A DNA stretch of 64,000 nt from Escherichia coli (lineage in GTDB: Bacteria > Pseudomonadota > Gammaproteobacteria > Enterobacterales > Enterobacteriaceae): the NCBI RefSeq assembly GCF_002854065.1, contig NZ_CP024147.1; one strand, 5' to 3'. Within the stretch, counting starts at the first letter, position 1, and the number at the start of each line of letters is the position of its first letter. The notes under the pieces were generated by a model. It worked only from the letters and a program-made list of their open reading frames with translations, did not search any database and was not told where the DNA came from. Shown in pieces: positions 4,200 to 47,765 of this stretch. Made by a program: the position numbers and the translations under genes.

Positions 4200-4319
4200 T
4201 GCCTGGCGGCCGTAGCGCGGTGGTCCCACCTGACCCCATGCCGAACTCAGAAGTGAAACGCCGTAGCGCCGATGGTAGTGTGGGGTCTCCCCATGCGAGA
4301 GTAGGGAACTGCCAGGCAT
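4200..4319 (+). rRNA. rrfE: 5S ribosomal RNA
   Basis: TGCCTGGCGGCCGTAGCGCGGTGGTCCCACCTGACCCCATGCCGAACTCAG...GGGAACTGCCAGGCAT, 120 nt. Confidence 0.95.
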
Positions 4320-4333
4320 CAAATAAAACGAAA

Positions 4334-4358
4334 GGCCATCCTGACGGATGGCCTTTTT
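4334..4358 (+). terminator. rrn operon rho-independent terminator (T1-like)
   Basis: GGCCATCC-TGAC-GGATGGCC hairpin followed by TTTTT just after the 5S gene. Confidence 0.75.
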
Positions 4359-4433
4359 GCGTTGGTGCAAAAAAATGCCGGATGCGACGCTGGCGCGTTT
4401 TATCCAGCTTACGCAGGCACGATAGGGGGCAGC

Positions 4434-4877
4434 TTATTCCCCCACATACGCCAGATTCAGCAACGGATACGGTTTCCCCAAATCGTCCACCTCAGAGCGT
4501 CCCGTAACCTTAAAACACACCTTCTTATAGAACCCAACCGCCTGCTCATTTTGCTCATTAACGTTGGTTGTCAGTTCCGGTGCCATCGAGAGCGCATGCT
4601 CCACCAGCATCCGACCCACGCCGCAGCCGCACACATCAGGATCGATAAACAGCGCATCCATATGCTGCCCACTTAACAACATAAACCCAACCGGCTGATC
4701 CCGTTCATTAACCGCGACCCACAACGGTGCTTCCGGCAGAAAGGAACGAACCAGCTCTTCCAGCTCGGCCCGATACTCTGCTGATAAAAAATCGTGGGTG
4801 GCATCGACAGATCGACACCAAATCGCAACGAGTTCCTCCCCTTCCTCATGCCGTGAGCGGCGAATACTAATAACCAT
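4434..4877 (-). CDS. yjaB: GNAT family N-acetyltransferase YjaB
   Basis: 147 aa ORF; protein recognised as YjaB; position after rrn operon and before metA. Confidence 0.9.
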   Translation of the reverse strand: MVISIRRSRHEEGEELVAIWCRSVDATHDFLSAEYRAELEELVRSFLPEAPLWVAVNERDQPVGFMLLSGQHMDALFIDPDVCGCGVGRMLVEHALSMAPELTTNVNEQNEQAVGFYKKVCFKVTGRSEVDDLGKPYPLLNLAYVGE

Positions 4878-7862: not shown

Positions 7863-9167
7863 ATGAAAACCCGTACACAACAAATTGAAGAATTACAGAA
7901 AGAGTGGACTCAACCGCGTTGGGAAGGCATTACTCGCCCATACAGCGCGGAAGATGTGGTGAAATTACGCGGTTCAGTCAATCCTGAATGCACGCTGGCG
8001 CAACTGGGCGCGGCGAAAATGTGGCGTCTGCTGCATGGCGAGTCGAAAAAAGGCTACATCAACAGCCTCGGTGCACTGACTGGCGGTCAGGCGCTGCAAC
8101 AGGCGAAAGCGGGTATTGAAGCAGTCTATCTGTCGGGATGGCAGGTAGCGGCGGACGCTAACCTGGCGGCCAGCATGTATCCGGATCAGTCGCTCTACCC
8201 GGCGAACTCGGTGCCAGCGGTGGTGGAGCGGATCAACAACACCTTCCGTCGTGCCGATCAGATCCAATGGTCCGCGGGCATTGAGCCGGGCGATCCGCGC
8301 TATGTCGATTACTTCCTGCCGATCGTTGCCGACGCGGAAGCCGGTTTTGGCGGTGTCCTGAATGCCTTTGAACTGATGAAAGCGATGATTGAAGCCGGTG
8401 CAGCGGCAGTTCACTTCGAAGATCAGCTGGCGTCAGTGAAGAAATGCGGTCACATGGGCGGCAAAGTTTTGGTGCCAACTCAGGAAGCTATTCAGAAACT
8501 GGTCGCGGCGCGTCTGGCAGCTGACGTGACGGGCGTTCCAACCCTGCTGGTTGCACGTACCGATGCTGATGCGGCGGATCTGATTACCTCCGATTGTGAC
8601 CCGTATGACAGCGAATTTATTACCGGCGAGCGTACCAGTGAAGGCTTCTTCCGTACTCATGCGGGCATTGAGCAAGCGATCAGCCGTGGCCTGGCGTATG
8701 CGCCATATGCTGACCTGGTATGGTGTGAAACCTCCACGCCGGATCTGGAACTGGCGCGTCGCTTTGCACAAGCCATCCACGCGAAATATCCGGGCAAACT
8801 GCTGGCTTATAACTGCTCGCCGTCGTTCAACTGGCAGAAAAACCTCGACGACAACACTATTGCCAGCTTCCAGCAGCAGCTGTCGGATATGGGCTACAAG
8901 TTCCAGTTCATCACCCTGGCAGGTATTCACAGCATGTGGTTCAACATGTTTGACCTGGCAAACGCCTATGCCCAAGGCGAGGGTATGAAGCACTATGTTG
9001 AGAAAGTGCAGCAGCCGGAATTTGCCGCCGCGAAAGATGGCTATACCTTCGTATCTCACCAGCAGGAAGTGGGTACAGGTTACTTCGATAAAGTGACGAC
9101 TATTATTCAGGGCGGCACGTCGTCGGTTACCGCACTGACGGGGTCCACTGAAGAATCGCAGTTCTAA
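7863..9167 (+). CDS. aceA: Isocitrate lyase
   Basis: ORF 7848..9167; known start [15 protein letters not shown]; 434 aa; conserved KKCGH active-site motif present. Confidence 0.95.
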
Positions 9168-9190
9168 GCAACCTACAAACGTTGCTGACT

Positions 9191-9323
9191 GTAGGCCGGA
9201 TAAGGCATTTACGCCGCATCCGGCAATCGGTGCACGATGCCTGATGCGACGCTTGCGCGTCTTATCATGCCTACAACCGTTGCCGAACGTAGGCTGGATA
9301 AGGCGTTTACGCCGCATCCGGCA
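9191..9323. repeat. REP/BIME cluster in the aceA-aceK intergenic region
   Basis: Three REP units (GTAGGCCGGATAAGGCATTTACGCCGCATCCGGCA and inverted copies). Confidence 0.8.
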
Positions 9324-9350
9324 ATTCTCTGCTCCTGATGAGGGCGCTAA

Positions 9351-13242
<3,892 letters not shown>

Positions 13243-20120: not shown

Positions 20121-20203
20121 CGTGACCCTGTAGGCCTGATAAGACGCGTAAAGCGTCGCATCAGGCACTATGAACAAGATGCCGGATCATGCATCCGGCA
20201 ATT
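20121..20203. repeat. REP elements between yjbB and pepE
   Basis: CCTGTAGGCCTGATAAGACGCGTAAAGCGTCGCATCAGGCA ... GCCGGATCATGCATCCGGCA. Confidence 0.7.
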
Positions 20204-20896: not shown

Positions 20897-21277
20897 TACT
20901 TCTCCGGTTAGTAAGAAATCACGGAAGGAATGCTACCACTGCGAATTTAACCACTTACTGACATGGCTCACGATGTCACGTATTGCACAGGCGCTGAGAC
21001 TGATGACAAACACAGCATTGCCTGATGCGCTACGCTTACCTGGCCTACCAGATAACTGCAATATATTGAATTTTCAAAATTATGTAGGCCGAATAAGGCT
21101 TTATTCCGCATCCGGCATAAACAATGTGTACTTTGCCACCAATTTGAGCGCCCCTTAAGGCGCTGATGTTTTTTTATCCTTCTCGTGCACATTGGGCCGC
21201 TTCAGCAATCAGCCGCACATCAGGTCGCGAAGTTGCCGCGGCGACCAGCCAGCGACATGCAGAGTTAAGTAGCGCGA

Positions 21278-22519
21278 TTAATCATGGGAAATTGCCTCTG
21301 CATGAGTGAGCAGATATTGCTCCGCCTCACCGGACCAGATCCCCTGATGACGCGCCAGAATCGCCGCCAGTGCTTGATCCTGAATCTGCGTGAGTGACGT
21401 CAGCGGCAGGTATTTCCCGGTATACACCAGCTTTTTGCCGCCGCCGACGGCAGGCAATTCAAGCGTGGTTTCGCCCGCGGCATTCAGCCCAAGAATATGT
21501 GTTACCACTTTTGCGGCCTGCACTTTTTTCTCTTCGATCAGTTTGACCGCCGCGCGCATGTCGTCGGTATTGCCGCCTGACGTGCCCACGTAGTGGGTAA
21601 ATGCATAATGCACATCGTAGAAATTAATTGGCGCGCTGAAATGTTTATCCTGCGGTCCGGCGAAGAAATTCAGGCAACCATCTGTCGCCAGCAAGGAAGA
21701 GGCGAGAGTCACCAGTCCTTCATTAGGCACAAAGACGAAAATATCATCGAAGCCGTGACCGCCACTCAGCGCCATTAGCGTATCAAATGCTGCATCGGTG
21801 GCATTGAGATAATGAATCAGTGTTTGCGATTCTGATGGATAGTGCTTGCGCGCATAACTCAATTTATCGTTGTCGGTATCGGTAATGACGAGCAGCGACG
21901 GGTTAACGGGTCCATGCAGCGCATAATCAATCGCCAACAGTCCCATTGGTCCGGTGCCGCCGAGGATCAGCGTGCGCCCTTGCGGGCGAATCCCCATCGT
22001 GTGGTTATAACTACCTTCCTGAAGATGATAGTTGGCGTTGAACGCGCCAATCACGCAGGAAAGCGGTTCAACCAGCGAGCCTTCAAAATAGGTTTCGCCG
22101 TCGTATGCCAGCAGGCAATCTTGTTCCATGACCTCGTTGGGAATAACCACATGCGTGGCTTCGCCGCCTACCCACGGGAAGGAGTAGCCGGGGCAGTCCG
22201 GGCGGTCGGGGAGTTGCAGGTTGGCCTGAATCACATAACGCTGACCCGGCTGGAATTTGTGCTGCCACTTTTTACCCACGGCCAGAATATCGCCGCAAAA
22301 CTCGTGGCCGATGATGATTGGGTTGGTCGCCACATCGTCGGGTACTTTTTTATGGTTTTCACCCAGGTTGGCCTCTTTCCAGGAAGAGAGGCACAGGCTG
22401 TCAGTGACCACCGTCGCGAGGATTTCTTCCTCCTGCATTTCAGGAAGGTCAAAGGTTTCCAGGCGTAAATCACGTTTACCATAAAGACGCAGAGCTGTTG
22501 TTTTCATAAACCACCTCAT
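21278..22519 (-). CDS. sorE: Zn-dependent dehydrogenase, probable L-sorbose-1-phosphate reductase
   Basis: 413 aa (true start may be MKTTALRL, 4 codons in); MDR-family dehydrogenase fold; last gene of a sor-type operon. Confidence 0.8.
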   Translation of the reverse strand: MRWFMKTTALRLYGKRDLRLETFDLPEMQEEEILATVVTDSLCLSSWKEANLGENHKKVPDDVATNPIIIGHEFCGDILAVGKKWQHKFQPGQRYVIQANLQLPDRPDCPGYSFPWVGGEATHVVIPNEVMEQDCLLAYDGETYFEGSLVEPLSCVIGAFNANYHLQEGSYNHTMGIRPQGRTLILGGTGPMGLLAIDYALHGPVNPSLLVITDTDNDKLSYARKHYPSESQTLIHYLNATDAAFDTLMALSGGHGFDDIFVFVPNEGLVTLASSLLATDGCLNFFAGPQDKHFSAPINFYDVHYAFTHYVGTSGGNTDDMRAAVKLIEEKKVQAAKVVTHILGLNAAGETTLELPAVGGGKKLVYTGKYLPLTSLTQIQDQALAAILARHQGIWSGEAEQYLLTHAEAISHD

Positions 22520-22558
22520 GTTGAGCGATGGCCCCGGCAGTCGTGCCGGGGCGAAGAA

Positions 22559-23413
22559 TCAGGACAGGAAGCCCAGCGCATTGCCGATAATTCCTAAGCC
22601 AAACAGGGCGAAAATCAGCCATACCGGGTTAATTTTTTTGTTGAGCAGACGAACCATTAGTAGCGTCAGACCGAGCGCCAGCAAACCAGGGCAAAGTTGG
22701 TCGAGAATGTTCTGCACGGTCATGGTGACGGTGGAGCCATCGGCGGCATGCGTTTGTGAAACCACCAACGGTACGTTGATTGACGTCCATTTGGTGACCA
22801 GCACGCCCATCACAAACAGTCCGAGAATCGACGCGCCTTCGGTGAGTTTTTGCAGCACATTCCCGCCCATATCGCTGACGATATTCACCCCTTTGCGAAA
22901 GCCGAGCTGTAGGCCATACCACTTCATCGCCAGACGCACCGCGTTGAAAATAAAGAAGAACAGCAGCGGGCCGAGAATGTTGCCCGAAAGTGCCAGAGAT
23001 GCGCCGAGCGCGGCGGTAATCGGGCGCAGCGTTCCCCAGACCAGTGGGTCGCCAACCCCTGCCAATGGTCCCATCAGACCGACTTTGATGCCGTTAATGG
23101 TACCGTCATCAATTTCCGCGCCGTTGGCCCGCGCCTCTTCCATGGCGGCAGTGACGCCGATGACCGGGCCACATACGGCTGGCGTGGTATTGAAGAACAC
23201 CAGGTGTCGCCTGAGCGCCGCAACCTGATCCTCTTTTAATGGGTAAAGTCGCTTGATGGCGGGGATCATGTCGTAGCAAAAACCCAGCCCGTGAATACGT
23301 TCAAAGTTAAAGGACGCCTGTTGCAGGTTGGAGCGCAGAAACATGCTCACCAGATCGCTGCGTGTAATTTTTCTCTGTTCCATGATGGCTCCGTTAATCG
23401 TCAAGTTGGTCAA
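22559..23413 (-). CDS. sorM: PTS mannose/sorbose-family EIID component
   Basis: 284 aa from a TTG start, or from internal MEQRKITRSDLVSMFLRS; ManZ-like N-terminus. Confidence 0.85.
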   Translation of the reverse strand: MTNLTINGAIMEQRKITRSDLVSMFLRSNLQQASFNFERIHGLGFCYDMIPAIKRLYPLKEDQVAALRRHLVFFNTTPAVCGPVIGVTAAMEEARANGAEIDDGTINGIKVGLMGPLAGVGDPLVWGTLRPITAALGASLALSGNILGPLLFFFIFNAVRLAMKWYGLQLGFRKGVNIVSDMGGNVLQKLTEGASILGLFVMGVLVTKWTSINVPLVVSQTHAADGSTVTMTVQNILDQLCPGLLALGLTLLMVRLLNKKINPVWLIFALFGLGIIGNALGFLS

Positions 23414-24191
23414 GGGCGGTGGAGGCGGTGGCCTGGAGTTGAGGTTCAGCTTTACGCCACTGTGGATTTAGCTGGATGTAGACCAGGGCCATGATCACGC
23501 CGACGCCACCGAACGCCAGCAGACTGAGATCGAGGTAGCCACCTGCGAGGAAACCGAGGAAAAAGAAAGGCATCAAATATTTCACGCCCATCATACGTAG
23601 CACCATGGCGTAACCGACCACCACGATAAAACCGCCAGCAATCTGTAGTCCTCGGGTCACAAATTCGGGAATGGCGTTTAACATATTGCTGACCATATCG
23701 GCGCTGACGAACAGCGAGACAATCAGTGCCGGAATAGCAACGCGCAGCGCCTGCACGCCAAGCGCGGAGACATGCAGAATATCGAAAGTGCGAAACCGCG
23801 CCTCTTCCGCTGCTTTATCCGCCGCGTGCTGGAACACTACGGTGATGGTACGGGCAAACACCGTCAGCACCTGGCCTGCCGCAGCCACAGGCAACGCGAT
23901 GGCGATTCCGGTGGCGATGCTTTGCTGACCAACGATAACCAGAATGGCGGAGATTATGCTGGCGAGTGCAGAGTCCGGAGATTGCGCCGCGCCGACGTTC
24001 ATCCAGCCGAGAGCTATCAATTCCAGCGTACCACCGAGTATTATTCCGGTTTTTAAATCACCGAGAATTAAACCAATCACCGTACAGGCAATTAACGGGC
24101 GATGAGTCTGAAATTCATCCAGCACGCTGCCCATTCCGGCAATACAGGAAAAAAGAAATATAGCAATAATTTGTAGGGTACTTATTTCCAT
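23394..24191 (-). CDS. sorA: PTS mannose/sorbose-family EIIC component
   Basis: 265 aa polytopic membrane protein, ManY-like; overlaps sorM start. Confidence 0.85.
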   Translation of the reverse strand: MEISTLQIIAIFLFSCIAGMGSVLDEFQTHRPLIACTVIGLILGDLKTGIILGGTLELIALGWMNVGAAQSPDSALASIISAILVIVGQQSIATGIAIALPVAAAGQVLTVFARTITVVFQHAADKAAEEARFRTFDILHVSALGVQALRVAIPALIVSLFVSADMVSNMLNAIPEFVTRGLQIAGGFIVVVGYAMVLRMMGVKYLMPFFFLGFLAGGYLDLSLLAFGGVGVIMALVYIQLNPQWRKAEPQLQATASTALDQLDD

Positions 24192-24256
24192 GATTTGTCA
24201 CCTTTTAAGTGTCGTCATCCCTGCCTGTTAAAGCATATGTACACAGGCGCTATTAT

Positions 24257-24751
24257 TTAATTTGCGATTAACTGTTCGTTTATTTTGTCGATAATATTGA
24301 TTGAGGGATCTGACGCTACGACGCGTAAATCCAATATGACGCCAAGATTATTTAACTCATGAAATGCGTTAATATCATCATCATCTAATGAAACCGCTTT
24401 GGTTAACTGTTTTTTACCGGGCCGCCAGGCCATGCCGCCAATATTCAGGGTGCCTATTTTTACCCCCTGGCGAACCATCGCTAAGGCATCCTGTGGGCGA
24501 GTGAAAAGATAAAAAACGGTTTCGTCCTGATATTGCGGGTTGTGATAAACCGCGATGGCTTTTTCAATATTGACCACGTTAACCTTCATTCCCGGTGGCG
24601 CAGCCTGACGCAATAATGTCCGGCGAACTTCATCGTTATAAACTTCGTCATTGCAGATAATAATGCGCTGGGCGTTAGCCACTTTCGACCAGACGGTAGT
24701 GACCTGACCGTGGATCAGGCGGTCATCAATGCGGGCGAGCGTAATGTTCAT
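24257..24751 (-). CDS. sorB: PTS mannose/sorbose-family EIIB component
   Basis: 164 aa, MNITLARIDDRLIHGQV (EIIB-Man signature); ATGA overlap with sorF. Confidence 0.87.
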   Translation of the reverse strand: MNITLARIDDRLIHGQVTTVWSKVANAQRIIICNDEVYNDEVRRTLLRQAAPPGMKVNVVNIEKAIAVYHNPQYQDETVFYLFTRPQDALAMVRQGVKIGTLNIGGMAWRPGKKQLTKAVSLDDDDINAFHELNNLGVILDLRVVASDPSINIIDKINEQLIAN

Positions 24752-25158
24752 CAGAAATCCTCCTCTGTCGTTGCCAGTTGTTTCCAGACAACGCAGGATT
24801 GCTTTGCGATTTGCGTCAGGTGTTCACACAGTTCATCAACATTCATGCTGTCCTGGTTATCAACCAGTTCGAGGGCCAGCGGCAGAGAAAGGCCGCTGAT
24901 TACCCGCAGACGAGGATTGCGCATCGCAAGCATCGCTGCCGCATTCCACGGGCTGCCGCACTGTAAATCCACGGTAATCAGCCACTCATCTTGATTGTGA
25001 ATGCTTACTAACTTTTCCAGCTTTGCTACGATGTCTCCGGCGTTCTCGCCGGGCACAAATTCAACGGCTTCAACATTGGTGTTGCCGTAAACCATCTGAA
25101 CCGATTCCAGCATGGCGCAAGCTAATTTGCCGTGGGCACAAAAAATGGCGTTGACCAT
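24751..25158 (-). CDS. sorF: PTS mannose/sorbose-family EIIA component
   Basis: 135 aa, MVNAIFCAHGKLA... EIIA-Man-like. Confidence 0.85.
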   Translation of the reverse strand: MVNAIFCAHGKLACAMLESVQMVYGNTNVEAVEFVPGENAGDIVAKLEKLVSIHNQDEWLITVDLQCGSPWNAAAMLAMRNPRLRVISGLSLPLALELVDNQDSMNVDELCEHLTQIAKQSCVVWKQLATTEEDF

Positions 25159-25167
25159 AAAGCCTCC

Positions 25168-25974
25168 TTATCCGCGCGTTTTGCCGCCCGCAATGTTAGT
25201 GGTTACTCCGGTGATGTAGCTGGCGCGTTCAGACAACAGATAACAAACAAAATCAGCGACTTCTGCTAATCTTCCGGCGCGCCCAATAGGAATGGCGTTT
25301 TTGGTATAGCCTTCACGCAGCTGCTCGACGGTGATATTGCGCGTCCACGCCAGCGCCTCTTCATATTCCGGCGTGCGTAGCCCGGTTTTTTCCAGAATCC
25401 CCGGCGCGATACCGACCACACGGATACCGTGTTTACCCAGCTCTTTCGACCAGGAGCGCGTGAAGCTATTGAGCGCGGCTTTGGTAGCGGCGTAACAGCT
25501 TTGTCCTTCTGAGCCTTCCAGTCCACTTTCTGAGGAAACATTCACAATCACGCCATCATGTTGTTTGACCATCTGTCGCGCCACCGCCTGCGACATCAGA
25601 AAAACGCCTTTCTGGTTGATATTGACCATTTTTTCGAATACAGCTTCGTTGAGTTCATACTTCCCGGCAGGCGCTTTCTCATCGACCAGCAGACGCGGGA
25701 AATTGACCCCGGCGTTATTGACCAGACCGTCGATGCGACCAAAACGCTGGATAATTTCCGCTACCGTATGATTTACCTCTTTGGCGCTGGAAATATCGGT
25801 CGGCCAAAACTGATAGCCTTTATGACCTTCATATTGTCCATCGCCACCGTGAATATCGACCATCTGTACATTCGCGCCTTGTGCTAATAATTCCTCTACA
25901 ATAGCCAGACCAATACCGGATGCGCCGCCGGTGACGATAATGATTTTATCCTGCAAATTTAACCACGTTTGCAT
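25168..25974 (-). CDS. sorD: Short-chain dehydrogenase/reductase, probable D-glucitol-6-phosphate dehydrogenase
   Basis: 268 aa; TGGASGIG NAD-binding motif and YxxxK catalytic motif. Confidence 0.85.
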   Translation of the reverse strand: MQTWLNLQDKIIIVTGGASGIGLAIVEELLAQGANVQMVDIHGGDGQYEGHKGYQFWPTDISSAKEVNHTVAEIIQRFGRIDGLVNNAGVNFPRLLVDEKAPAGKYELNEAVFEKMVNINQKGVFLMSQAVARQMVKQHDGVIVNVSSESGLEGSEGQSCYAATKAALNSFTRSWSKELGKHGIRVVGIAPGILEKTGLRTPEYEEALAWTRNITVEQLREGYTKNAIPIGRAGRLAEVADFVCYLLSERASYITGVTTNIAGGKTRG

Positions 25975-26043
25975 AACAGACTCCTGATTTTAGATAATAG
26001 GGACCCGCCGTAATTTTTATTACGATAATCATCGGGAAGATTT

Positions 26044-26991
26044 TTATTTCAGTAATAGTTCAGCTGTGCTGCTATTCGTTACCAGACAATTAATATATTT
26101 TCCACGCAGTGCACCAATAATTCCGCTGTATTTTTCTTCACTCATGGCAATGCCAATTGAATATCGTGCCTGCTTTAATTTATTCATTTCGATAGAGAGT
26201 GTTTTTTCGCTCATATTCGTTTCAACCATTGCGCCGTGAATATCAAAAAAGCGCGAGCAAATATCGCCAGCAACCTGGCGGGCATTCAGGTCGTCACTCT
26301 CTTCACCACCATAAAACGCATGCCAGTTAGCGCCGTCGCGAATGGCCGGTGAGCCAATTCCCACCAGGGCGACATCCAGATTATCCCAGTAGGCAGAGAT
26401 GGTTTTAAAGTGCTGAGACTGCATGATCCCATTACGAATTAAGGGGTTATCCAGCAGAGCCGGAAAATCCGCGAGATGCGATTCCCCTTTCAGCTTCGCA
26501 GCCGCGCTGTAGGTTAATGTGTTTACGTGATAGCGGCTTTCGAGTTTACCGGACGGTCCGCCAATAATTGGTACGCAGATTAACTGCCGCGATTGCCCCG
26601 CCTGCGGCAAGTTTTCAACCAGTGCGCTCACCGCGCGACCCCAGGAAAAACCGACAATATCGCCAGGCTCCAGCAAGCGATCCAGCAGTTGCGCGCCGTG
26701 TAACCCCATCATCGCCAGTTGAGTCTCTTCATCCTCATCATTTCCCGACACCACCACAACGTCTTTCAGGCCAAACTTTTGCTTCAGTTGCTGCTCCAGC
26801 CAGAGATTTTCGTTGTAGTCATAGTTGATGGCGATGGTGACAATTCCCTGATCGCGGCCTCGTTTAAGCAAGCGGCTGATGGTGGTGCGGTAAATACCCA
26901 GTTCGCGCGCGATTTGCGCCTGCGTCATATCCTGTTCGTAATAGAGTTGGGCAATCTTCACAATCAAACGGATATCGTCACTGTTTTCCAT
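26044..26991 (-). CDS. sorC: SorC-family transcriptional regulator of the sorbose operon
   Basis: ORF 26044..27075; likely start MENSDDIRLIVKIAQ with AGGAGG RBS upstream; N-terminal HTH, C-terminal sugar-phosphate binding domain. Confidence 0.85.
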   Translation of the reverse strand: MENSDDIRLIVKIAQLYYEQDMTQAQIARELGIYRTTISRLLKRGRDQGIVTIAINYDYNENLWLEQQLKQKFGLKDVVVVSGNDEDEETQLAMMGLHGAQLLDRLLEPGDIVGFSWGRAVSALVENLPQAGQSRQLICVPIIGGPSGKLESRYHVNTLTYSAAAKLKGESHLADFPALLDNPLIRNGIMQSQHFKTISAYWDNLDVALVGIGSPAIRDGANWHAFYGGEESDDLNARQVAGDICSRFFDIHGAMVETNMSEKTLSIEMNKLKQARYSIGIAMSEEKYSGIIGALRGKYINCLVTNSSTAELLLK

Positions 26992-27338
26992 TGCCGCCTC
27001 CTGGTTCTGCACATTTGTGCAAATACGCTTTCTCACCGCTTGATCTGATATAACCCCATCATGATGGCCTTTCAAAGCGATTTTTCACTCTTTGCATGGG
27101 GAGAAATAGCGCTTTCTCTTGCACATTTGTTTCTCTGCGCAGTAGTCATCAGCACAGGTGTGCAGCGATTCGTAATATGTTGATTATCCTTATTTTGACA
27201 GGCAAATTTGCATTGTACTTCCGGAGACACTTTTGTGATAAAAGGCGTGGCAGATCACATTTAATTTCGACGTTGCCGCATAACCCTGTTTTTCCCCGCT
27301 AAGAGGTACGGTATATTCCGCGTTTTACAGGAGAATTT

Positions 27339-28211
27339 ATGCTGCCCGACTCATCAGTCCGTTTAAATAAATACATCAGCGAAAGCGGAATTTGCTCACG
27401 CCGCGAAGCGGATCGCTATATCGAGCAAGGCAATGTGTTCCTTAATGGCAAGCGAGCCACCATTGGCGATCAGGTGAAACCCGGCGACGTTGTGAAAGTA
27501 AACGGTCAGTTGATTGAACCTCGGGAAGCCGAAGATTTGGTACTTATCGCCCTGAACAAGCCCGTCGGTATTGTCAGCACCACCGAAGATGGCGAGCGCG
27601 ATAACATTGTCGATTTTGTTAACCACAGCAAACGCGTGTTCCCGATTGGCCGCCTGGATAAAGACTCCCAGGGGCTGATTTTCCTCACCAATCACGGCGA
27701 TCTGGTGAATAAGATCCTCCGTGCGGGTAACGATCATGAGAAAGAGTATCTGGTGACGGTCGATAAACCGATTACCGATGAATTTATTCGTGGTATGGGG
27801 GCGGGGGTGCCGATCCTCGGGACGGTGACTAAAAAGTGCAAAGTCAAAAAAGAAGCGCCGTTTGTCTTCCGCATTACCCTGGTGCAGGGGCTGAACCGTC
27901 AGATCCGGCGCATGTGCGAGCATTTCGGCTATGAAGTGAAAAAGCTGGAACGTACGCGCATTATGAACGTCAGCTTAAGCGGCATTCCGCTGGGAGAATG
28001 GCGCGATTTAACCGACGACGAGCTTATCGATCTCTTTAAGCTCATTGAAAATTCCTCTTCCGAGGCGAAGCCCAAAGCGAAGGCCAAACCGAAAACAGCG
28101 GGCATCAAACGTCCAGTCGTTAAGATGGAAAAAACGGCGGAAAAAGGCGGTCGCCCGGCGTCCAACGGTAAGCGTTTTACCTCGCCGGGGCGTAAAAAGA
28201 AGGGGCGCTAA
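27339..28211 (+). CDS. rluF: 23S rRNA pseudouridine synthase RluF
   Basis: 290 aa; S4 domain plus RsuA-type catalytic domain; basic Lys/Ala-rich C-terminal tail. Confidence 0.93.
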
Positions 28212-28484: not shown

Positions 28485-28582
28485 GATGGTGCCCTCAGTG
28501 AGCCAGAGAGTTCAGTGTACGGGAATTCGTTTGCGAGCAGAACTGATAATATTCCTTTGTTCTCTTCGGTAATGACTCCAAC

Positions 28583-29086
28583 TTATTGATAGTGTTTTAT
28601 GTTCAGATAATGCCCGATGACTTTGTCATGCAGCTCCACCGATTTTGAGAACGACAGCGACTTCCGTCCCAGCCGTGCCAGGTGCTGCCTCAGATTCAGG
28701 TTATGCCGCTCAATTCGCTGCGTATATCGCTTGCTGATTACGTGCAGCTTTCCCTTCAGGCGGGATTCATACAGCGGCCAGCCATCCGTCATCCATATCA
28801 CCACGTCAAAGGGTGACAGCAGGCTCATAAGACGCCCCAGCGTCGCCATAGTGCGTTCACCGAATACGTGCGCAACAACCGTCTTCCGGAGCCTGTCATA
28901 CGCGTAAAACAGCCAGCGCTGGCGCGATTTAGCCCCGACGTATCCCCACTGTTCGTCCATTTCCGCGCAGACGATGACGTCACTGCCCGGCTGTATGCGC
29001 GAGGTTACCGACTGCGGCCTGAGTTTTTTAAATGGCGGAAAATCGTGTTGAGGCCAACGCCCATAATGCGGGCGGTTGCCCGGCAT
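28583..29086 (-). CDS. insB: IS1 InsB (transposase C-terminal part, expressed as InsAB' by -1 frameshift)
   Basis: 167 aa ORF matching IS1 InsB. Confidence 0.9.
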
Positions 29087-29280
29087 CCAACGCCATTCAT
29101 GGCCATATCAATGATTTTCTGGTGCGTACCGGGTTGAGAAGCGGTGTAAGTGAACTGCAGTTGCCATGTTTTACGGCAGTGAGAGCAGAGATAGCGCTGA
29201 TGTCCGGCAGTGCTTTTGCCGTTACGCACCACCCCGTCAGTAGCTGAACAGGAGGGACAGCTGATAGAAACAGAAGCCAC
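29005..29280 (-). CDS. insA: IS1 InsA (transposition repressor / transposase N-terminus)
   Basis: 91 aa, [40 protein letters not shown]... Confidence 0.9.
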
Positions 29281-29330
29281 TGGAGCACCTCAAAAACACC
29301 ATCATACACTAAATCAGTAAGTTGGCAGCA

Positions 29331-30029
29331 TCACCCGTTGGTGCTTTCCCAGCTTAATGCCGCTGAGGTGGTTTTTATCATGACTTCTGTTCGGTAGCCT
29401 GCATCTTTGAGTTTTTTTAATGTTTGTAGCGGCGTAGCGGCATTACGAAATGTTCCTTCGACAACAATATTGAGTTTATTGGCTATGGCCCTCTCTATTG
29501 CACGTTCGACCGTTTCGCCGGAAAATTTTGCCGTATGGGTAACAAAATCGTCGCCATAAGTTTGATATATATAATTAAAATCAGGGTGTAGAAATCTGAA
29601 ATCATCACCATTAATAATCATTATATTATTCTTTGTTTCCCTTTTTGCTAATTCGATTAGGGCGGATTTTCCGGCTCCTGGTTGTCCACCTAAAACAAAA
29701 CCAATGGGACTCTGCTGGGATGTGACGTCATGGTTTGTCAGACGCTGCCAAATAGAATCAAAAGACGCTTTATTTTCTGAATGCGCAGTATTATTAAATT
29801 CACGCTGATACTTTTTTCTGACCTGCTGGAGGCGTAACTTTTCCTGTGTAAAATCAACAAGTTCTGCTTGAGTGGAATAAAGATTGTCGCGATAGCTGAC
29901 TAATTGTGATAGCTCATCGTCTGAGTCCTGAACTTGTGAGGAAAAACAACTGTCGACGATATTTGATAAAAACGCGATGCACTGACTGGCGCCGTTTAAA
30001 AGTGCATCCTTTTCCATTAAAGTAGCCAT
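29331..30029 (-). CDS. Zeta-toxin-like P-loop kinase domain protein, reading frame runs into the IS1 end (probably C-terminally truncated)
   Basis: ORF 29331..30035 with likely ATG at 30029 preceded by AGGAG; Walker A GGQPGAGKS, then INGDDFR and VEGTFR motifs; AT-rich; stop codon lies inside IS1 terminal repeat. Confidence 0.55.
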   Translation of the reverse strand: MATLMEKDALLNGASQCIAFLSNIVDSCFSSQVQDSDDELSQLVSYRDNLYSTQAELVDFTQEKLRLQQVRKKYQREFNNTAHSENKASFDSIWQRLTNHDVTSQQSPIGFVLGGQPGAGKSALIELAKRETKNNIMIINGDDFRFLHPDFNYIYQTYGDDFVTHTAKFSGETVERAIERAIANKLNIVVEGTFRNAATPLQTLKKLKDAGYRTEVMIKTTSAALSWESTNG

Positions 30030-30173
30030 TAACACTCCTGTTAAATGATATTTTTCGGTGATTGTAATACTGTTCTACAGGAGTGATTTTGCTTTTCAGA
30101 TATTATTTAATCTATGTTTTCAGTGAGGATGGCGTATAACAATTGGTGAGCGTTATACGCCAGTAGGGAAATA

Positions 30174-31523: not shown

Positions 31524-31830
31524 AACTACCTCGTGTCAGGGGATCCATTTTCAGCCTTGGCACAAGGGAAGAGCGGAAGACGGGTGGGCGCAGAGCGATA
31601 CTTCGCTACTATTTTCACCCAGAAGTGCTCCACCACTTGCGAAACGCCCGACTGCGAACGCTTCTGGTGACAACCCAGGGGATTCAGCCCCTGTAGCCGA
31701 TGATGAACGTGGCCAGCCGTTCAATCACCTCGGCGATGCACCCCCTCAGGTGTTATCACAGGACTGGCTCCTCCAACACCGTTACTTGGGCAACGCGCCT
31801 CTTCTGGCCTGCGCTAGCGCAGGTAGTACA
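31524..31830 (-). promoter_or_regulatory. lysC 5' leader containing the lysine riboswitch (L box)
   Basis: Long untranslated leader upstream of lysC; reverse complement contains GAAGAGGCGCGTTGCCCAAGTAACGGTGTTGGAGGAGCCAGTCCTGTGATAACACCTGAGGGGGTGCATCGCCGAGGTGATTGAACGGCTGG characteristic of the lysC leader. Confidence 0.75.
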
Positions 31831-33708: not shown

Positions 33709-33803
<95 letters not shown>

Positions 33804-34209
33804 GTCGATGCCGATATGTACATCGTATTCGGCAATTAATGCATAGCACGATTAATTAAATAACCTTAAAAACAATGCCGACTATAAGTCGGCATTGTTT
33901 TATCAGATAAATCCCCTTGTCTGTGATTTAACGGAAATCATACCGTGAGGTTAATCCTAAAATAGATTTTTAATCGTGATTGATTTCGGAAAATACTCAG
34001 ATTAATTACTTTTACTTTTATTTTAACACTATGATTTTTAATGTTATTTATATATAAGTTGTAGCTTATATTTGATATTCATTCCAATTATCCTAAAACC
34101 CCATCTCTAATTCCCCGCGCCGTAATTCGCATGCTTTAGTTGTGTATACTCGATCCCGCCCGAAATGTTTTTGGGTAAATCTCCATTCATTCAATGAAGG
34201 GAAATTGTT

Positions 34210-38359: not shown

Positions 38360-38628
38360 TTGTTCCAGAGGAACATTGTCGATTTTTCGCGCATTGCTGG
38401 TGGCTGGGAATCACCTGAATGGGTGATTTTTGAATTACCGGCTTTGGTGCGGTTTGTCTTGCCGGATGCGCCGCCAGGCGCGGCTTATCCGGCCTACGGG
38501 TAGGTATATCCGGCTTTGGTGGAGGCGCGCTCCAAATCCAGGTTGAACAAAAAATACACAAAAAATATAGATCTCCGTCACATTTTTGCGTTATACAGGA
38601 AGCTCGCCACTGTGAAGGAGGTACTGCT

Positions 38629-43379: not shown

Positions 43380-43410
43380 GGGGTTCTTCCTCATTCCAGG
43401 ACGGATAAGG

Positions 43411-43524
43411 CTTTCACGCCTTATCCGACAACAACTGCCTGATGCGACGCTGACGCGTCTTATCAGGCCTACATACGTTTCGGTTTTGTAGGTCGGACAA
43501 GGCGTTCACGCCGCATCCGGCATT
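43411..43524. repeat. REP/BIME cluster in the malE-malF intergenic region
   Basis: GGATAAGGC...GCCTGATGCGACGCTGACGCGTCTTATCAGGCCTACA...GCCGCATCCGGCA; classic malE-malF REP location. Confidence 0.8.
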
Positions 43525-47623: not shown

Positions 47624-47657
47624 CCTGGGCCGGATAAGGTGCTTGCGCCGCATCCGG
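47624..47657. repeat. REP element after lamB
   Basis: GGGCCGGATAAGGTGCTTGCGCCGCATCCGGCAT. Confidence 0.6.
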
Positions 47658-47765
47658 CATAAAACAGGTTGTCATTATCTGAAAGGGGCGAAAGCCCCTC
47701 TGATTATCGGGTTTAGCGCGCTATTGCCTGGCTACCGCTGAGCTCCAGATTTTGAGGTGAAAACA

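Follow-up and report, generated by a model that had tools for sequence, protein, structure and literature searches.

The palindromes in the analyzed stretch are very probably ordinary members of the Escherichia coli REP family (types Y, Z1 and Z2), combined into BIME-1 and BIME-2 elements, and, where gene content differs from that of K-12, the REP belongs to one allele. The element flagged for study, a group of three REPs between aceA and aceK, is known, ordinary biology, and the reading of these repeats as recombination hot spots is not supported. REP/BIME elements have been on record since the 1980s and 1990s, as have their siting at 3' ends and inside operons and their strain-to-strain variation in copy number. 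The analysis matters little beyond annotation; it clears up, as unsupported, a tempting causal story in which REPs mark the boundaries of islands.

REP elements in the window

The window, by which is meant the whole stretch of 64,000 nucleotides that was analyzed, is a part of the E. coli chromosome running from rrnE through dnaB, in a yjaA-negative, sorbose-positive strain near CUWW06. The gene order was read from the annotations of the nearest genome, CUWW06, and of K-12 MG1655, and each coding gene whose coordinates were transferred was confirmed in the window as an intact ORF. The order is as follows.

First part: rrsE-gltV-rrlE-rrfE, yjaB, metA, aceBAK, arpA, iclR, metH, yjbB, pepE, sorEMABFDC, rluF, yjbD
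Middle part: IS1, zeta-toxin gene fragment, lysC, pgi, yjbE-H, yjbT, psiE, xylE, malGFE
Last part: malK-lamB-malM, yjbI, ubiCA, plsB, dgkA, lexA, dinF, yjbJ, zur, dusA

That the window is a copy of CUWW06 was ruled out, as it is without the IS1 in sorB and has an additional 2.4-kb deletion adjacent to IS1. The region 8000-11000, which contains aceA-aceK, is matched in 5425 of 5426 complete E. coli genomes, with a 100% match in two of them. Other features of the window are an arpA homologue (11056-13242, - strand), which is annotated as the T3SS effector EspL4 in the nearest genome and overlaps the 3' end of aceK by 32 bp, and yjbI (48916-50496, + strand), which is an intact SopA-family gene here and a pseudogene in K-12. 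Rfam matches were also obtained for StyR-44 in the rrn spacer (1088-1196, + strand), for the lysine riboswitch upstream of lysC (31615-31811, - strand) and for STnc430 just downstream of the pgi BIME (33864-34013, - strand).

A half-site scan of the whole window (GCCKGATGCG, followed after 4-15 nt by CTTATCMGGCCTAC, with at most five mismatches) found 15 REPs in nine clusters. In the list below, a REP is on the + strand when GCCKGATGCG...CCTAC reads 5' to 3' on that strand.

4377-4412, + strand: single, degenerate Z2-like REP, 59 bp past rrfE and 21 bp past the yjaB stop codon, between convergent 3' ends
9191-9224, - strand: Y REP, aceA-aceK spacer
9239-9274, + strand: Z2 REP, aceA-aceK spacer
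9289-9322, - strand: Y REP, aceA-aceK spacer
20130-20166, - strand: single Z2 REP between convergent yjbB and pepE, 12 nt past the yjbB stop codon
21020-21116: BIME-1 type, Z1 at 21020-21048 (+ strand) and Y at 21084-21116 (- strand), in the gap that separates the pepE start from the end of the sor operon
33724-33801: BIME, Y at 33724-33757 (- strand) and Z2 at 33765-33801 (+ strand), 26 nt past the pgi stop codon
38461-38497, + strand: single, atypical REP between divergent yjbT and psiE
43437-43521: malE-malF BIME, Z2 at 43437-43472 (+ strand) and Y at 43488-43521 (- strand), 11 nt past the malE stop codon, inside the operon
47625-47658, - strand: single Y REP in lamB-malM, 9 nt past the lamB stop codon, inside the operon
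52145-52243: BIME-1 type, Z1 at 52145-52173 (+ strand) and Y at 52210-52243 (- strand), between convergent ubiA and plsB; conserved in K-12

All 15 matches agree with the REP consensus, being imperfect palindromes of 29-37 bp of the form GCC(G/T)GATGCG...CTTATC(C/A)GGCCTAC with terminal CTAC/GTAG, and three copies have a variant of the terminal tetranucleotide (TTAC at 4377, CCAG at 47625 and CTTC at 52210). The number expected by chance is small, since 50 Markov-1 shuffles gave six matches when summed (about 0.12 per shuffle). When the 14-mer CTTATCMGGCCTAC was searched with at most two mismatches, 14 matches were found, compared with a shuffle mean of 0.40, and none of 100 shuffles reached 14. 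The sequences are also dispersed in high copy: a 361-bp query covering aceA-aceK matches a median of 28 places per E. coli genome and another REP-containing query a median of 16, compared with a median of one for a REP-free control query. The Rfam model of naRNA4 (RF02564) is matched above its threshold of 59.5 bits by three Y-Z2 pairs, at 9194-9271 in the aceA-aceK spacer (81.8 bits), at 33727-33798 in the pgi BIME (81.3 bits) and at 43399-43469, which overlaps the malE-malF BIME (67.4 bits). Curated REP features are absent from the feature tables returned for K-12 NC_000913.3.

The repeats have a characteristic position. All 15 lie outside the ORF-verified genes, and a gene 3' end precedes eight of the nine clusters, the exception being 38461-38497, for which the position between divergent genes is an unusual context and the K-12 copy is identical. 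Seven REPs, representing seven of the nine clusters, start 9-26 nt past a stop codon. Seven of the nine clusters, the pgi BIME among them, have an orthologous counterpart in K-12, which is without those at 4377-4412 and 21020-21116; the REP at 20130-20166 is conserved both in K-12 and in Escherichia outgroups. The earlier note had named a series of sites with REP palindromes and had described them as operon junctions. A REP is confirmed by the scan at every named site (15 found against about 0.1 expected), and two short Z1 REPs, at 21020-21048 and 52145-52173, had been overlooked; with these added, the sor and ubiA-plsB clusters become BIME-1 elements. The description as operon junctions is correct as far as 3' ends and intergenic spacers are concerned, but three clusters are inside operons (aceBAK, malEFG and malK-lamB-malM) and one lies between the divergent genes yjbT and psiE.

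The BIME-1 element has been defined by the succession of Z1, a long linker with an IHF site, and Y, and BIME-2 by Y and Z2 REPs that alternate, with short linkers (PMC3333891). Judged by sequence, the clusters at 21020-21116 and 52145-52243 are both of the BIME-1 type, as each has a Z1 and a Y REP separated by a linker of about 35 bp with a putative IHF site. The linker of the former (21049-21083) is AT-rich, has a length of 35 bp and contains the IHF-like site ATTCAATATATTG on the - strand, and the 36-bp linker of the latter, also AT-rich, contains the IHF-like site ATTCAATAAATTG. Both linkers have ATTCAATAWATTG, which differs by one mismatch from the IHF consensus WATCAANNNNTTR.

The aceA-aceK spacer and the role of the repeats

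The element at 9191-9322 has the composition Y-Z2-Y with two 14-bp linkers and fills the 183-bp spacer between aceA and aceK, inside the operon. It is of the BIME-2 type, having alternating Y and Z2 REPs, short linkers and a tandem number that is variable. The RNA of the spacer is predicted to fold with a free energy of -80.5 kcal/mol, compared with -59.2 +/- 4.1 kcal/mol for shuffles (z = -5.19), and this predicted fold is the stable single-strand stem-loop that is characteristic of REPs; neither an intrinsic terminator nor a sigma-70 promoter consensus was found in the spacer. The layout with three REPs is identical in K-12, and a structure like that of the window is present in 1494 of 5426 genomes. 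The alleles that were sampled differ purely in the number of REPs, which is 0, 2, 3, 4 or 5, and those with 2, 4 or 5 REPs are built from a 98-bp Y+Z unit (L010, L011 and L007/L008). In E. coli CUVET18-565 (L009 589-636), the spacer is only 48 bp long and has no REPs, and an unrelated hairpin, CGCCCCTTTCCGTAAGGCGAGGGGCG, is seen there. A full-text literature search for the REPs of aceA-aceK gave nothing relevant; the TRS paper treats, at aceA-aceK, only the AceK-int sRNA.

Published work suggests how such repeats could act. Once transcribed, REPs in 3' UTRs or in spacers inside operons would fold into stable hairpins rich in GC. These hairpins may block 3'-to-5' exonucleases, by which the upstream message would be stabilized, and they may partly terminate transcription, in part by a Rho-dependent mechanism, by which the expression of the downstream gene would be lowered. 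The level of AceK is far below that of AceA. A stabilized upstream and a reduced downstream message at aceA-aceK would fit with the need for far less AceK than AceA, and the range from 0 to 5 REPs could tune the AceK:AceA ratio between lineages. The regulatory role of each site in this strain is one that we infer from other loci and from the literature. For REP325, a 2026 preprint describes both a partly Rho-dependent terminator and an mRNA stabilizer, and the same study finds that tandem gene pairs with a REP have expression biased to the upstream gene and that REP positions vary by strain (bioRxiv 10.64898/2026.03.23.713779).

On another proposal, such repeats would chiefly be organizers of the chromosome at the DNA level, by binding of gyrase and IHF, by forming barriers to supercoiling and by HU-naRNA4 condensation of the nucleoid, with a secondary role for the RNA. 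The one-mismatch IHF-like site in both BIME-1 linkers and the match of three BIMEs to the naRNA4 model are in agreement with this proposal, as is the binding of IHF, gyrase and Pol I to BIMEs cited in PMC3333891, where BIME-1 linkers in particular are described as binding IHF. The position of seven REPs at 9-26 nt past stop codons fits with a function in the transcript, however, and 0 to 5 REPs are tolerated at aceA-aceK. In addition, REP325/naRNA4 gave no measurable nucleoid compaction and contacts between REPs were not seen in Hi-C; the nucleoid-condensing role first proposed for naRNA4 is disputed (bioRxiv 10.64898/2026.03.23.713779). A chiefly DNA-level function is, on this evidence, unlikely.

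When the repeats of the window are taken as ordinary REP family members, their variation may be understood as well. REPs would be non-autonomous elements that are handled by a single-copy enzyme, TnpA_REP (RAYT), and neighboring REP copies would recombine, so that their number changes; with both processes, the presence and the copy number of REPs would be among the most variable of intergenic features. The copy number of BIMEs is known to vary between strains (PMC3333891). In the present comparison it has changed repeatedly, not only at aceA-aceK (0 to 5 REPs) but also at lamB-malM, where K-12 has a BIME of three REPs and the single REP of the window reads as a hybrid of the first and the third of these. 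Clearly, REPs recombine with their neighbors and alter their own number.

Gene-content differences from K-12

The structure of the window was compared by BLAST with 56 kb of K-12, and five differences were found.

Difference A, window 4325-4438: 114 bp with an rrnB-T2-like terminator and a REP; K-12 has 521 bp with another terminator and yjaA
Difference B, window about 20986-27303: sor operon; K-12 has 95 unrelated bp
Difference C: rluF and yjbD are directly adjacent in the window; in K-12 a further 122-bp palindromic element, which is not a REP, lies between them
Difference D, window 28568-30173: IS1 and a zeta-toxin gene fragment; K-12 has a short spacer
Difference E, lamB-malM: one REP in the window; three REPs in K-12

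The earlier note had pointed out that the REPs at the sor junction and near the rrn terminator coincide with differences in gene content, and this is indeed observed, as the right breakpoint of difference A is 26 bp and the left breakpoint of difference B is 34 bp from a REP. It had called this consistent with REPs being recombination hot spots, and proposed a comparison of island boundaries in alignments with the REP positions as the means to refute this. In the alignment with K-12, most boundaries are away from REPs: only two of seven breakpoints are within 50 bp, the left breakpoint of A is at 52 bp and the other four are at 3.5-6.2 kb. Because a REP is no more than 50 bp away for about 17% of the intergenic bases, two or more out of seven such breakpoints are expected with P = 0.33, which is not beyond the intergenic expectation. 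When counted per intergenic gap, REPs are present in three of five variable gaps and in six of 39 invariant gaps (Fisher P = 0.05), a borderline association in which one of the three REP-bearing variable gaps is a pure change of REP copy number. The co-location of REPs and variable points is real but weak. At the pepE and yjaA loci, there is no REP that is common to the alternative alleles or that flanks the variable segment; each of the two REPs lies inside allele-specific DNA and is missing from the K-12 allele, so that it could not have provided homology common to the two present-day alleles. The right end of sor is REP-free, and so are both ends of the yjbD-lysC island.

At rrnE (window 4318-4438), yjaA, a marker in Clermont phylotyping, is absent, and an rrnB-T2-like terminator (hairpin at 4331-4356) followed by the REP at 4377-4412 is found directly after the 5S gene instead. 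This terminator and REP share about 89% identity with the flank of rrnA (rrfA-mobB), the homology running from the 5S gene and ending exactly at the end of the REP. As the homology takes in the REP, the rrnE REP is part of a paralogous rrn 3'-flank unit, which is also found after rrnA. The allele with this unit is present in 2822 of 5426 genomes, and the rest match only from window position 4439 on, that is, they have yjaA. For recombination at rrnE, the obvious substrate is the 5-kb rrn repeat, and on a reading that is quite unlikely the pattern would fit with a gene conversion that runs from the rrn repeat and is resolved at the REP. The yjaA-minus state used in phylotyping is accordingly one that carries an rrnA-like terminator and REP unit.

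Three alleles are found at pepE, which together account for 5414 of the 5426 genomes.

K-12-type, without sor: 2557 genomes
Window-type: 2680 genomes
L006-type: 177 genomes, in which the shikimate-5-dehydrogenase-like gene, situated between sorE and pepE, is intact and the junction is free of REPs

The junction between pepE and sor in the L006-type allele is the same as that of the window, yet without a REP. In the alignment of these two alleles, a segment of about 155-170 bp with the BIME-1 in the window replaces 16 bp of the L006-type. K-12 is common with the L006-type allele through TTCTGG and is divergent thereafter, such that the K-12 junction is about 6-10 bp from the insertion point of the BIME-1. 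Downstream of sorE (21157-21277), the window has a remnant of the shikimate-5-dehydrogenase-like gene, of which both ends are left and about 700 bp have been deleted internally, and this deletion begins 111 bp from the BIME-1. The insertion point of the BIME-1, the junction of the sor loss in K-12 and one end of the deletion in the dehydrogenase gene are all within about 170 bp. In E. coli ET729 (L005 2704-4204), an independent deletion has fused a truncated pepE to a truncated sorE, and the BIME-1 and the pepE promoter region are gone.

The distribution of the sor genes indicates which of these alleles is the older one. The intact dehydrogenase-like gene is present not only in the 177 E. coli genomes but also in other genera, and sorCDFBAME together with this gene lies between rluF and pepE in Klebsiella michiganensis, Raoultella terrigena, an Enterobacter and Pseudocitrobacter. 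The same rluF-sorCDFBAME-pepE placement is seen in E. whittamii, E. albertii and Escherichia clade species, and in these a BIME-1 is present between the dehydrogenase gene and pepE. In E. albertii (L015 3602-4177), four tandem 147-bp units of the BIME-1 type (Y, IHF-like linker and Z1) are located between the dehydrogenase gene and pepE; in the literature, BIME-1 is described as occurring in single copy. As sor is found at this site in several genera, the locus is old, and a loss in K-12 is the most likely explanation. From these gene arrangements, K-12 is probably the derived state, the "sor island" being an ancestral locus, and the BIME-1 lies downstream of an old sor operon that K-12 probably lost. 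The source of the 95 bp unique to the pepE-rluF spacer of K-12 was searched for in the sor region, where nothing beyond 11-mers was found. The sor-minus species (Escherichia sp. E1V33, S. enterica arizonae, C. koseri and Intestinirhabdus) have mutually different contents between pepE and rluF and no REP, from which it follows that this gap is variable with or without REPs.

Neither end of the third island, between yjbD and lysC, has a REP, and in the window an IS1 terminus forms the left end. The IS1 (28568-29336) abuts the yjbD flank without a target duplication and is followed by a truncated zeta-toxin-family gene (29337-30029). Beside it, 2.4 kb of CUWW06 are missing, with genes for a slipin-family protein and a DNA-polymerase-beta-superfamily protein, an arrangement that indicates, at the level of sequence, a classic IS1-adjacent deletion. 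A 21-bp "direct repeat" flanking the slipin/polymerase-beta cassette of CUWW06 was rejected as an artefact of BLAST overlap at the IS1 end. At a further site, rluF and yjbD abut at window positions 28211/28212, and K-12 (L003 23237-23358) has a GC-rich palindromic element of 122 bp whose inverted ends are AACGCCTCAGA...TCTCAGGCGTT. This element, which does not belong to the REPs, is possibly a BoxC-like miniature element.

The presence of a REP does not by itself make a gap unstable. The malE-malF gap, which has a BIME, keeps its structure in 5411 of 5426 genomes, compared with 5421 of 5426 for the REP-free metA-aceB gap; a REP-bearing gap can thus match a REP-free gap in stability. The alleles that differ in gene content are few (2557, 2680 and 177 genomes at pepE, and 2822 genomes versus the rest at yjaB), with one extra deletion, that of ET729, spanning a BIME. 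Two or three fixed alleles cover nearly all of the 5426 genomes at each locus, which would point to a few old events rather than to recurrent breakage.

It is conceivable that REPs or BIMEs promoted rearrangements nearby, through TnpA_REP cleavage at a distance or through ectopic recombination anchored at a REP, giving the deletions at pepE and a conversion at rrnE. Three points, namely the proximity of about 10 bp at the pepE junction, the start of the deletion at 111 bp and the end of the rrnA/rrnE homology, allow some local instability of this kind, which is nevertheless quite unlikely as the cause. The stronger version, in which REPs are hot spots and homologous or TnpA_REP recombination made the differences in the sor and yjaA regions, can call on the same three points, as well as on the closeness to breakpoints (26 and 34 bp) of the two sites that K-12 lacks, the internally deleted gene beside the BIME, the ET729 deletion across the BIME, the REP-to-REP recombination visible at lamB-malM and the in vitro finding that TnpA_REP can cut at a distance from BIMEs and can recombine them (PMC3333891). 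It is very unlikely to hold, as five of seven breakpoints are more than 50 bp from any REP, the K-12 allele is REP-free at both loci, the sor/pepE junction is without a REP in 177 genomes, the sor locus at this site predates Escherichia, each locus has two or three fixed alleles in 5426 genomes, the third island is bounded by IS1 and the BIME of malE-malF does not make that gap less stable than a REP-free one. A view of the palindromes as GC-rich hairpins that arose by chance, or as ordinary terminators, can practically be dismissed. The REPs at 4377-4412 and 21084-21116 are degenerate, with 3-4 mismatches in the strict scan, but the counts (15 versus about 0.1, and 14 versus 0.4), the dozens of places matched per genome by REP queries (median 28 for the 361-bp query) and the Rfam matches above threshold are all far from what chance would give. 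For ordinary REP family members, the weak co-location would be accounted for by the scarcity of dispensable DNA just past gene 3' ends, to which REPs as well as indel breakpoints are restricted.

Comparison with known systems

The repeats of the window are like the known REP/BIME elements of E. coli (Stern 1984; Gilson, Bachellier and Hofnung; Ton-Hoang et al. 2012, PMC3333891) in their consensus, their terminal GTAG/CTAC and their extragenic site, and they also agree with the description in PMC3333891 in their alternating orientation, the lengths of their linkers, the IHF-like site of BIME-1 and the strain-variable number of BIME-2. Nothing essential is different; the copies at 4377-4412 and 21020-21116 are degenerate, and 38461-38497 has an uncommon, divergent context.

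Among individual systems, the malE-malF REP is present in the window as the exact element (43437-43521), and the aceA-aceK BIME resembles it in its intercistronic position and its Y/Z2 composition. The malE-malF REP is reportedly, from Newbury et al. 1987, the model of upstream mRNA stabilization. The two sites differ in that malE-malF is fixed in 5411 of 5426 genomes, whereas the number of REPs at aceA-aceK is three in the window and ranges from 0 to 5 among strains. The REP325/naRNA4 system (RF02564, yjdM-yjdN operon) is similar in that the three Y-Z2 pairs of the window that match it are likewise intercistronic or 3'-UTR BIMEs; the Rfam family has its origin in one locus, REP325, and in effect recognizes generic BIME-2 pairs. 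In the REPIN/RAYT (TnpA_REP) system, the proposed mobilizable unit is matched by the inverted REP pairs of the window, and the polymorphism in presence, absence and copy number fits with a slowly mobile element. Unlike that system, the window has no tnpA_REP gene within it, and any mobilization here would be a reading from the polymorphism.
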